Assembly (NCBI GenBank): GCA_021799085.1
Contig: JAJZBD010000004.1
Coordinates: 7,973-71,972, forward strand
DNA length: 64,000 nt
From: Nanobdellota archaeon
Lineage (GTDB): Archaea > Nanobdellota > Nanobdellia > Parvarchaeales > Parvarchaeaceae
Direction of reading: 5' to 3'
Below, one piece after another: positions 12,576 through 62,593 of the stretch (positions within the stretch are counted from its first letter, which is position 1; every line of letters begins with the position of its first letter). Both the position numbers and the translations under genes were made by a program. Under the pieces are notes generated by a model that searched no databases, was not told the origin of the DNA, and saw only the letters and a program-made list of their open reading frames with translations.

Positions 12576-13499
12576 TTAATCATCTATCTTAAACCTTTCC
12601 TTAAGATTTAGGACCCTGTAAAGCTCTTTGTACCTGTTTCTTATCGTGACTTCGGTTATACCTGCAGCCTTCGCAGCATCTCTCTGTGTCTTCTTTTCTT
12701 TGTTTATCAGAGTTGCAACATAAAGCACTGCCGCTGCTATGCCCATTGGGCCCTTTCCGCTTGTAAGCCCTTTATCTTCTGCTTCTTTAAGCAGTTTTAC
12801 TGCGTCCGAAACAGTTTTGTTCGAAACTCCTAATTCAGAAGCAAATTTGTAGATGTAATCGCTTGGCGATGTTGGGAGTATTTTTATCCCAAGTTCTCTG
12901 CAAAGCAGTCTATAGGCCTTTCCAACCTCTTTTCTTTCGACTTCAAATGTATCCGAAATTTCATCCAATGTTATAGGCCTATTGTGTTTCCTTGCAGCAG
13001 CGTAAAGTGCCCCTGCAATTACGCTTTCCATTGACCTGCCCCTCACCAATCTTCTTGTTATGGCTTCTCTGTACATCTTTGCCGCTTCTTCCTGTATTAT
13101 ATTTGAAACGTGTAAACGATTGCTTGCGTGCCTTAATTCTGTAAGTGCAAACTTTAAATTCCTTTCATATGCAGTTGAGATTCTTGGCTGCCACTTCCTT
13201 AATTTATAGAAAGTTCTTCTGTTTGCATTAGAAAGTTTTATGGACTCGCTTGCCTTTCCTATCACAGTACTTGTACCTTTATCATATTTTGCATAACTTA
13301 ATGGAGAACCCATTCTCCCTTTTCCTTCATCTCTTTCGTCTTCAAAAGAACGCCATTCCCTGCCGTAATCTATCGTATCACTCTCTATTACATATCCACA
13401 GTTCTGACAGACTAACTCGCCGGTAGTCTTATCATAGATAACTGCATCGCTTCCACAGGAAGGACATTTAATATTATACTTGCTTGTAACCACTTTCAT
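12576..13499 (-). CDS. tfb: Transcription initiation factor IIB
   Basis: Zn ribbon CPSCG/CQNCG, GREWRSF, two cyclin repeats, TEVTIRNRYKEL. Confidence 0.97.
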   Translation of the reverse strand: MKVVTSKYNIKCPSCGSDAVIYDKTTGELVCQNCGYVIESDTIDYGREWRSFEDERDEGKGRMGSPLSYAKYDKGTSTVIGKASESIKLSNANRRTFYKLRKWQPRISTAYERNLKFALTELRHASNRLHVSNIIQEEAAKMYREAITRRLVRGRSMESVIAGALYAAARKHNRPITLDEISDTFEVERKEVGKAYRLLCRELGIKILPTSPSDYIYKFASELGVSNKTVSDAVKLLKEAEDKGLTSGKGPMGIAAAVLYVATLINKEKKTQRDAAKAAGITEVTIRNRYKELYRVLNLKERFKIDD

Positions 13500-27079: not shown

Positions 27080-27157
27080 GCTTAACAATAGATTAAACGT
27101 TAAGCATAAAATATATAAGTTTACTTTAATGTAATAAACTATCAATGCTTGGATTAA

Positions 27158-27229
27158 GCCTCCGTAGCTCAGCGGTAGAGCGTCTGCCTTGTAAGCAGAA
27201 GGTCGCGGGGCCAGCACCCGTCGGAGGCT
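27158..27229 (+). tRNA. tRNA-Thr(TGT) with non-canonical T loop
   Basis: GCCTCCG/CGGAGGC acceptor, GCTC/GAGC D stem, TCTGC-CTTGTAA-GCAGA anticodon arm, GCGGG-GCCAGCA-CCCGT T arm, U73. Confidence 0.85.
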
Positions 27230-27240
27230 TATTTGGTGAT

Positions 27241-27966
27241 ATGAAAATAAAGGGTATAATATTTGATTTCGACAATACATTAATAAACTCTTCAAAAACA
27301 ATAGACGATGCCAACAAATCCGTTTTAAACAAGATGCAGGAAGACTTCGAAATGATGGATTTGAAAACCTTTGACCGAATACTTAAAAAAGTCCAAAGAA
27401 AGTTCGACAGTCTAGATCCTATGAAAAGATACAAAAGGCTTTTTTATGAACTTTTTGCAGAAGAAAGTGGCTTGAGCATTGATACCGAAAAGATAGATGT
27501 ATATGCTGAGATTTTTGAGAGCCACCTTATAAATAGAATGGAATTTACAGAGGGGGCTGAAGAAACTATAGACCGGCTTAAAAATATGGGATTGAAAGTA
27601 GGTCTGCTAACAGGAGCAGGGTTCTATCCTGGCCTAAAAAAAAGAACACTAGAGAAATTTGACCGTAATGGAAAGTTTGATGTAAAAATCATTGCAGGTG
27701 ATAACATACAGGAAAGCAAGCACAATCCAGAAGCATTTAAAAAAACGGCTGCAATGCTGAAGCTTAAAACAGATGAGATAATATTCATAGGAGACACTCC
27801 TGATATAGACATTGACAACGCAAAAGAAGCAGGCATGAAAACGGTGCTTTTTGACAGATACAACGAAGAAAAGCGAAAAATCTCTAAGAATAAGCCAGAT
27901 TTTGTAATAGAGGATATGCGGGATATTTACAAAATATTGGATGGTTTAAATCAAGTATTAGACTGA
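27241..27966 (+). CDS. HAD-superfamily hydrolase (start moved to MKIKG)
   Basis: FDFDNTL motif I, LLTG, K..PE, IGDT...DI..AK. Confidence 0.9.
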   Translation: MKIKGIIFDFDNTLINSSKTIDDANKSVLNKMQEDFEMMDLKTFDRILKKVQRKFDSLDPMKRYKRLFYELFAEESGLSIDTEKIDVYAEIFESHLINRMEFTEGAEETIDRLKNMGLKVGLLTGAGFYPGLKKRTLEKFDRNGKFDVKIIAGDNIQESKHNPEAFKKTAAMLKLKTDEIIFIGDTPDIDIDNAKEAGMKTVLFDRYNEEKRKISKNKPDFVIEDMRDIYKILDGLNQVLD

Positions 27967-62521: not shown

Positions 62522-62593
62522 GCCTAGGTGGCTCAGTGGCAAAGCGTCTCCTTGGTAAGGAGAAGATCGCGAGTCCGATTCTCGCCCTAGGCT
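62522..62593 (+). tRNA. tRNA-Thr(GGT)
   Basis: GCCTAGG/CCTAGGC acceptor, TCTCC-TTGGTAA-GGAGA, GCGAG-TCCGATT-CTCGC, U73. Confidence 0.92.

Follow-up and report, generated by a model that had tools for sequence, protein, structure and literature searches.

A putative elongator tRNA-Thr(UGU) with a non-canonical, clade-fixed T-loop in Candidatus Parvarchaeum

The tRNA-Thr(UGU) gene described here carries the T-loop GCCAGCA and is kept letter-for-letter in about 15 archaeal species, which points to a working tRNA, neither an error nor a dead gene. We propose that it encodes a genuine elongator that is expressed, is essential and alone reads ACA codons; its T-loop would have been remodelled in the ancestor of one clade under relaxed constraint and subsequently held by purifying selection. 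We put the probability that this is correct, i.e. that we deal with a bona fide tRNA whose non-canonical loop came under strong purifying selection once fixed, at roughly three in four. Functional statements about this tRNA are based on how well it is conserved and on no alternative gene having been found; its expression, its charging, the geometry of its loop and the cause of the relaxation are inferred.

Across all three domains, the U54·A58 pair, pseudouridine-55 and C56 are treated as nearly invariant features of cytoplasmic tRNAs (PMC7912444). In our full-text literature searches, neither G54/G58 nor A54/U58 was found reported for any cytoplasmic tRNA of archaea, and the main text of the ARMAN tRNA catalogue (PMC3239211) makes no mention of the loop.

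Results

The gene and its T-loop

The window, i.e. the whole stretch of 64,000 nucleotides analysed, comes from a genome of 0.91 Mb in 14 contigs, with about 37% G+C and 93% completeness. Judged from its sequence, this is the genome of a Candidatus Parvarchaeum, the ARMAN-4/5 genus of DPANN archaea and thus a tiny acid-mine archaeon. It is called G000 below; other G-numbers denote genomes compared and L-numbers loci compared. All compared genomes are metagenome bins.

The gene lies at 27158..27229 on the plus strand. It is 72 nt long and intron-free, CCA is not encoded, and its delimitation is based on Rfam, fold and cross-species identity. The Rfam model RF00005 matches exactly 27158-27229 over model positions 1-71, with 58.6 bits against a gathering score of 29 (E 4.2e-10); this score takes rank 31 of 45 among the tRNAs of G000. 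The four paired stems reported in the first-pass annotation are recovered in the minimum-free-energy fold, a clover-leaf of -31.3 kcal/mol with acceptor, D, anticodon and T stems of 7, 4, 5 and 5 bp, in which all 12 pairs of the acceptor and T stems are formed. The arms read GCCTCCG/CGGAGGC (acceptor), GCTC-AGCGGTA-GAGC (D), TCTGC-CTTGTAA-GCAGA (anticodon) and GCGGG-GCCAGCA-CCCGT (T). The remainder consists of TA after the acceptor, G between the D and anticodon arms, the variable loop AGGTC and the discriminator T. ARAGORN called the gene neither in the window nor in G000, nor in ten relatives with the same sequence. Since it calls none of the gene copies, the GCCAGCA loop must be far from the norm; Rfam and custom parsing were used for this tRNA instead.

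The T-loop at 27210..27216 (plus strand) is read directly as G54 C55 C56 A57 G58 C59 A60, and none of its 7 positions varies among 15 distinct clade sequences. The G, C and G at positions 54, 55 and 58 had been pointed out before; A60 is an additional abnormality that had escaped notice. When compared with the canonical elongator loop (U54, U55, C56, R57, A58, Y60), solely C56 and A57 conform. Four of the seven positions (54, 55, 58 and 60) thus depart from the consensus, and five depart from the canonical TTCAATC of relatives. G54, C55 and G58 allow neither a U54·A58 reverse-Hoogsteen pair nor a pseudouridine-55, so the earlier statement that the U54-A58 pair and the Psi55-G18 contact are removed holds. 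With G58, m1A58 is impossible as well. Among the tRNAs of G000, Thr(UGU) is the only one without U54 and A58. The T-loops of Gln-CUG and of one Met-CAU in this genome read TTCAAAT.

The rest of the molecule is ordinary. The 5´ strand of the T-stem (GCGGG, positions 49-53, 27205..27209, plus strand) forms 5 of 5 pairs with 27217-27221, G49·U65 included, and its 3´ strand (CCCGT, positions 61-65, 27217..27221, plus strand) is assigned from fold and pairing. The D-loop AGCGGTA is of the canonical elongator kind; its G18 and G19, the elbow partners of 55 and 56 (27174..27175, plus strand), are read directly and are invariant in the clade. The anticodon TGT (27190..27192, plus strand) stands in the loop CTTGTAA, with U33 and A37; no other UGU anticodon arm in this 93%-complete genome belongs to a tRNA body. 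The discriminator is U73 (27229..27229, plus strand) and, together with G1-C72, C2-G71 and C3-G70, it recurs in Thr(CGU) and Thr(GGU), the two remaining Thr isoacceptors of G000, which share the GCC...GGC acceptor. Anticodon and discriminator are therefore normal for a tRNA-Thr, as had been claimed.

Upstream of the gene, an A/T-rich block (AAAATATATAAG...TTTAATGTAATA) at about -53 to -16 (27105..27142, plus strand) stands out as runs of invariant columns in an otherwise variable intergenic region of 15 sequences. We regard it as a candidate archaeal BRE/TATA promoter, which may perhaps also serve the divergent upstream gene; other tRNA genes have TTTAWA boxes resembling it, located around -25 to -35. 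Between block and gene lies a 5´ leader (27143..27157, plus strand), 15-20 nt long across species and variable at nearly all positions, after which the mature tRNA start at 27158 is invariant.

Conservation across the genus

The GCCAGCA form was found in 15 of 32 species-level genomes of the genus, ARMAN-4 and ARMAN-5 included. In at least 13 other species genomes, the gene is 100% identical over its 72 nt; two more are at 97-99%. G010 (97.2% identity) carries a D-loop U to C change, plus G49 to A, which gives A49-U65; the same D-loop change occurs in G040 and in ARMAN-5 (L090, 98.6% identity). The replacement of G49·U65 by A49-U65, seen in G010 and L075, is a compensatory T-stem change. When 15 distinct sequences were aligned, 70 of 72 columns were invariant in the tRNA; upstream of it, this holds for 36 of 133 columns, and downstream for 24 of 68. 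Across the clade, identity of the flanking genes to those of G000 is only 57-94%, and gene order is kept: a divergent, unannotated gene of 206 aa upstream and a HAD hydrolase that starts at 27241, 12 nt downstream.

Named records were found by an exact 22-mer of the anticodon arm. They show the same T-arm in Ca. Parvarchaeum acidiphilum ARMAN-4 (GG730040.1) and Ca. P. acidophilus ARMAN-5 (GG745550.1), as well as in many bins labelled "Parvarchaeota/Nanoarchaeota". An artefact of assembly, binning or sequencing would thus have to recur identically in independent assemblies, obtained from other sites by other laboratories with other technologies, and always in the same gene neighbourhood. Since the same sequence is present in independent assemblies from several laboratories, among them ARMAN-4 and ARMAN-5, the assembly error that the first-pass annotation had named as its own possible undoing can be dismissed, and we consider the chance of any such artefact negligible.

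Decoding of ACA codons

G000 contains 46 tRNA genes. Its Thr isoacceptors are CGU (window 701-772), GGU (window 62522-62593, with a duplicate at a contig end) and UGU (27158-27229), and all three fall within a 62-kb stretch of the window. The two Thr(GGU) copies (C1:70494-70565, near a contig end, and C13:45-116, 45 nt from one) are identical and probably represent assembly overlap, not a true duplication. The T-loop of tRNA-Thr(CGU) reads TTCGAAA, with A60 instead of the usual pyrimidine.

A scan of G000 (93% complete) for any stem-loop with UGU anticodon and tRNA-like body revealed no other candidate. Similarly, two different queries found no canonical Thr(UGU) in any of the about 15 GCCAGCA-carrying genomes, which are incomplete bins. 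The second gene that had been suggested as worth seeking was thus found in no such genome searched. ACA is the commonest Thr codon, with 39% of Thr codons and 19-20 per 1000 codons overall. Its share is in line with the share of NNA in other four-fold boxes (0.35-0.49), so ACA is not avoided. The tRNA hence appears, as originally expected, as the decoder of frequent ACA codons, and as the sole UGU tRNA found. Near-identity in 15 species with diverged flanks, the finding of no second Thr(UGU) gene and demand for ACA decoding together make it very probably functional; the first-pass annotation had called it probably so.

T-loop forms of tRNA-Thr(UGU)

The clade of 15 species with the GCCAGCA loop (G54/G58) is accompanied by a second derived form. 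G012, G020 and one contig of G009 possess the T-arm GCGAG-ATCATCA-CTCGC, i.e. A54 U55 C56 A57 U58 C59 A60, in which the bases usual at 54 and 58 have changed places (A/U). The body of this tRNA is 89-92% identical to that of the GCCAGCA form, and its T-stem has changed in a compensatory manner from GCGGG/CCCGC to GCGAG/CTCGC. R54, C56, A57, C59 and A60 are common to both derived loops, which means that the loop was rebuilt at four to five positions, not at one pair. The contig that bears the G009 copy measures 2.7 kb, in a bin of 120 contigs, and the copy is at odds with where Cbf5 places that genome; as it may be mis-binned, we rejected it as evidence for polarity and left it out for that purpose. 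In the Cbf5 protein tree, GCCAGCA genomes form one clade (support 95/100) and G012/G020 belong to another.

Elsewhere in the genus, the Thr(UGU) T-loop of G017 is TTCAATC. Six further members (G003, G005, G014, G016, G023 and G042) have Thr(UGU) genes with a 4-nt variable loop and the T-loop TTCAACT or TGCGACT. Acceptor and D-arm of these six genes (L053, L110, L051, L127, L109 and L103, respectively) resemble those of their own Thr(CGU), which suggests isoacceptor remoulding or gene replacement. The genus thus harbors at least three lineages of Thr(UGU) genes. In outgroup families, the Thr(UGU) T-loops are TTCAATC, TTCAACT, TTCAAAT and TTCGAAT. When metagenomes were scanned for Thr(UGU) bodies bearing any NNCANCA loop, there were 0 matches and no intermediate loop states, in a collection that did not yield the known sequence either. 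C54 occurs in two other tRNAs of the genus, tRNA-Ala UGC of G012 (L203, CTCAAAT) and tRNA-Thr CGU of G014 (L107, CTCAACT).

Relaxation at position 55

The occupancy of positions 54, 55 and 58 was compared in the tRNA sets of five genomes. In G000, 54/58 is U/A in all 46 tRNAs except Thr(UGU), and non-U55 occurs in 9, Thr(UGU) included. G017 of the same genus has U/A in all of its 40 tRNAs and non-U55 in 8; G012, likewise of this genus, has U/A in its 41 except for Thr(UGU) and the C54 of Ala(UGC), with non-U55 in 4. Both G024 (39 tRNAs) and G037 (26 tRNAs), which represent outgroup families, show U/A throughout and non-U55 in 0. C55 or G55 is thus found in 10-20% of tRNAs in the three genus genomes surveyed versus 0 of 65 in the two outgroup genomes of the same class. 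In G000, C55 is carried by Asp-GUC, Ile-GAU, Ile-UAU, Ser-GGA, the two copies of Thr-GGU (TCCGATT at window 62522-62593) and Thr-UGU, and G55 by Gly-CCC and Phe-GAA. As each of the three genus genomes has C55 in both Asp-GUC and Thr-GGU, this base is apparently old and used unaltered.

These counts indicate that the constraint on the T-loop is relaxed across the genus, at position 55 only. The relaxed elbow recognition suspected in the first-pass annotation is therefore partly supported: it describes position 55 genus-wide, whereas the loss of the 54/58 pair is confined to Thr(UGU) in G000. C55 is not unique to Parvarchaeum either, as the tRNA-Thr(UGU) T-loop TCCAAAT was seen in contigs of unrelated archaea, Nitrosopumilaceae/Thaumarchaeota (L061-L064, L070, L073, L078-L080, L085 and L093). 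A separate peculiarity is tRNA-Gly CCC of G000 (C3:69025-69095), whose D-loop AGCAGCA is devoid of the GG doublet, whose D-stem is weak and whose T-loop reads TGCGAAT (G55); its elbow may be wired differently.

Modification enzymes and the cbf5 insert

Loss of T-loop modification enzymes had been offered as another possible implication of the odd loop. No true match to Pus10 was found in 40 genomes of the class searched; weak matches in 39 of them correspond to the catalytic core of Cbf5 at the same coordinates. This class-wide negative agrees with the published absence of Pus10 in Nanoarchaeum (PMC7337903). G000 likewise gave no match to TrmY and no true match to a U54 methyltransferase, the PF05958 hit being Trm5, the m1G37 enzyme. 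Trm56, the Cm56 methyltransferase, gave no match in any of the 24 genus genomes searched (G000 and 23 others); of 16 further families in the class, 10 have it. What G000 does contain is a GCD14/TrmI-like methyltransferase (61.5 bits), for which A57 is a possible remaining target in tRNA-Thr(UGU), Cbf5 (329 bits) and a full-length archaeal RNase P RNA (120.7 bits).

Several enzymes are thus indeed unmatched, but their loss is not a sufficient cause. Outgroup G024 lacks Pus10 and outgroup G037 lacks both Pus10 and Trm56, and still their T-loops are fully canonical (26 of 26 in G037). We therefore rejected the absence of Trm56 and Pus10 as a sufficient explanation even for the relaxation at position 55. 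As outgroups without the same enzymes keep canonical loops, the losses can be at most permissive, not causal.

The cbf5 gene itself contains a 12-nt insert, AAGATTGAAGAA, outside the window (contig C2 of G000, 13163-13174, minus strand, equivalent to L153:964-975). The insert, with one in-frame TGA, is present in G000 and 16 other members of the genus (17 of 24 searched). It splits the codon of the catalytic Asp between the first and second letter (G|AT); with AAGATTGAAGAA removed, GTLDPNVTG is restored exactly as in insert-free relatives. Between species, three loop bases alone vary, and the synonymous sites on either side are unchanged. A helix GGGA/UCCC, a 3-nt bulge AAA, a helix CUUU/GAAG and a loop make up the predicted fold of the region. 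The insert thereby shows the codon site and the bulge-helix-bulge/bulge-helix-loop flank of archaeal cbf5 pre-mRNA introns, and crenarchaeal cbf5 introns occupy the same place in the codon (PMC2738675). According to this folding model, it is probably a spliced bulge-helix-loop mini-intron in a protein-coding gene of DPANN archaea, which suggests that Cbf5 is functional after the predicted splicing. We also considered a tie between the odd T-loop and the insert and abandoned it: G005 combines the insert with a canonical loop and G017, devoid of the insert, has C55 in 7 tRNAs, so insert and T-loop states are not correlated.

Discussion

A likely course of events is as follows. A canonical loop of the UUCAAUC type would have turned into R54-Y55-C56-A57-N58-C59-A60 in the ancestor from which one clade of the genus descends; the versions fixed today are GCCAGCA here and AUCAUCA in the sister lineage. 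The features presented to outside partners would have been kept, namely C56 (the Watson-Crick partner of G19), purine-57, G18G19, the 7-nt loop and the closing pair G53-C61. What RNase P, the CCA-adding enzyme and the ribosome touch is the elbow's backbone and its outer platform, G19-C56; the U54·A58 pair lies hidden inside, with G53-C61 on one side and the intercalated G18 on the other. Because G18G19, C56, purine-57, the loop length and G53-C61 persist, a normal L-shape with merely the 54·58 layer replaced is to be expected. In this layer, the buried reverse-Hoogsteen pair would have given way to another non-canonical contact. By analogy, we conjecture either a wider purine-purine pair G54·G58, for which A54·A58 of the eukaryotic initiator sets an example (PMC7912444), or a sheared R54·A60 pair, given that both derived forms have purine-54 and A60, as initiators do (PMC4425011). 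Alternative Watson-Crick registers of the T-arm (G54-C59 with a tetraloop, A54-U58 with a triloop) were rejected, as none suits both forms. The change would have been tolerated through the genus-wide relaxation of T-loop constraint.

A more ambitious extension, to which we assign a low probability, is that R54...C59-A60 represents a distinct, selected T-loop architecture, advantageous for example by making the tRNA immune to a factor that targets canonical T-loops, or by altering how TrmI, aEF1A or the ribosome handles it. If this is true, the near-universal core of the T-loop is replaceable in the translation system of a free cell. Closely related, and in our opinion somewhat less probable still, is adaptive specialisation as the origin of the loop: escape from a host, viral or toxin nuclease or other factor that recognises or cleaves T-loops, loss of A58 as an anti-determinant for TrmI, or tuning of the affinity for aEF1A or the ribosome in favor of the top Thr codon. 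Change in a single tRNA species, subsequently frozen in about 15 species, would fit such a scenario, as would the joint alteration of four to five loop positions and the presence of a TrmI-like enzyme that loses one target site along with A58. T-loop features are also known to separate tRNA classes elsewhere, such as A54/A60 in eukaryotic initiators (PMC4425011). On the other hand, no candidate nuclease or partner was found, other members of the genus thrive with canonical Thr(UGU) loops, and the same conservation is to be expected of an essential single-copy gene after a change that was neutral or compensated.

Two further explanations would make the genomic loop misleading, and we hold each of them for very improbable. 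The transcript could be restored to a canonical-like T-loop by editing or base modification, for instance by deamination of C55 to U and its subsequent pseudouridylation. Such C-to-U editing of archaeal tRNA exists at position 8 in Methanopyrus, and Cbf5, a possible pseudouridine-55 synthase, is present; yet we know of no editing chemistry that converts G54 or G58 into U or A. Moreover, the sister form has U55 with A54/U58, so that the two forms would need different repairs, and several further tRNAs of the genus have C55 or G55 at orthologous positions in one species after another, which suggests that these bases are used as they are. Alternatively, the gene could be a non-translational or decaying tRNA-like element, with ACA read by a split, permuted or imported tRNA that is unassembled or unrecognised. 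The rejection by ARAGORN and the incompleteness of all genomes, which are bins, speak for it, as does the fact that T-loop changes mark the non-ribosomal tRNAs of Staphylococcus cell-wall synthesis. Decay is nevertheless hard to reconcile with 70 of 72 invariant positions and compensatory stem changes next to leaders saturated with changes, or with an anticodon loop, discriminator and acceptor like those of other Thr tRNAs. Nor does it agree with the unavoided ACA codons, the lack of another UGU arm in G000 and the finding of no second gene in about 15 genomes.

We thus favor a remodelled but working elongator. Taken at face value, the tRNA-Thr(UGU) of this clade appears to be a natural, clade-fixed elongator that dispenses with three near-invariant T-loop bases, keeps the G19-C56 platform and is evidently indispensable. 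It presents a natural experiment on the role of the T-loop core in folding, RNase P processing, CCA addition, binding of elongation factor and transit through the ribosome. There is also a practical aspect: standard tRNA finders can miss essential tRNAs of DPANN archaea, and such misses can pass for missing decoders. Finally, the genus-wide relaxation at position 55 and the cbf5 mini-intron offer leads on the biology of pseudouridine-55 in reduced archaea.

Comparison with known systems

Canonical archaeal tRNA-Thr(UGU), as found in G024, G027 and G017, has the same 72 nt, clover-leaf, G1-C72/C2-G71/U73, D-arm with G18G19, 5-nt variable loop, C56 and A57, and positions 7-48 are 98% identical to those of G027. 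In the tRNA described here, G replaces U54, C replaces U55, G replaces A58, and CA takes the place of UC/CU at 59-60.

The eukaryotic initiator is the textbook exception to T-loop invariance and, along with bilaterian mitochondrial tRNAs, the closest parallel to the present loop. Its tRNA-Met pairs two purines in Hoogsteen fashion, A54·A58, carries A60, and is L-shaped and ribosome-competent (PMC7912444, PMC4425011). Purine-54 and A60 are found here as well, and the sister form AUCAUCA additionally shares A54-U55-C56-R57 along with A60. Unlike the initiator, our tRNA is an elongator for Thr with G1-C72 instead of A1-U72, G58 or U58 instead of (m1)A, and C55; its anticodon stem UCUGC/GCAGA lacks the three G-C pairs. 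Of the initiator-type features it has A60 only, with A54 in the sister form, so the resemblance is structural, a lead drawn by analogy and not class membership.

Bilaterian mitochondrial tRNAs, such as human mt tRNA-Ala, evolve under relaxed constraint and function without canonical U54/A58, and introduction of these bases is even harmful (PMC7033119). They share with our case the loss of canonical U54/A58 from a functional tRNA in a reduced genome. However, loop sizes (7 nt), G18G19, C56 and G+C-rich stems are intact here, which does not correspond to a degenerate tRNA of mitochondrial type; one of about 46 tRNAs is affected, and instead of an organelle we have a cell that possesses a full archaeal RNase P RNA.

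In Staphylococcus, non-proteinogenic tRNA-Gly species have an altered T-psi-C sequence and serve as extra isoacceptors that are kept off the ribosome. They too are an example of a natural non-consensus T-loop, but the tRNA-Thr(UGU) of Parvarchaeum is, as far as the genomes searched reveal, the sole decoder of a major codon.
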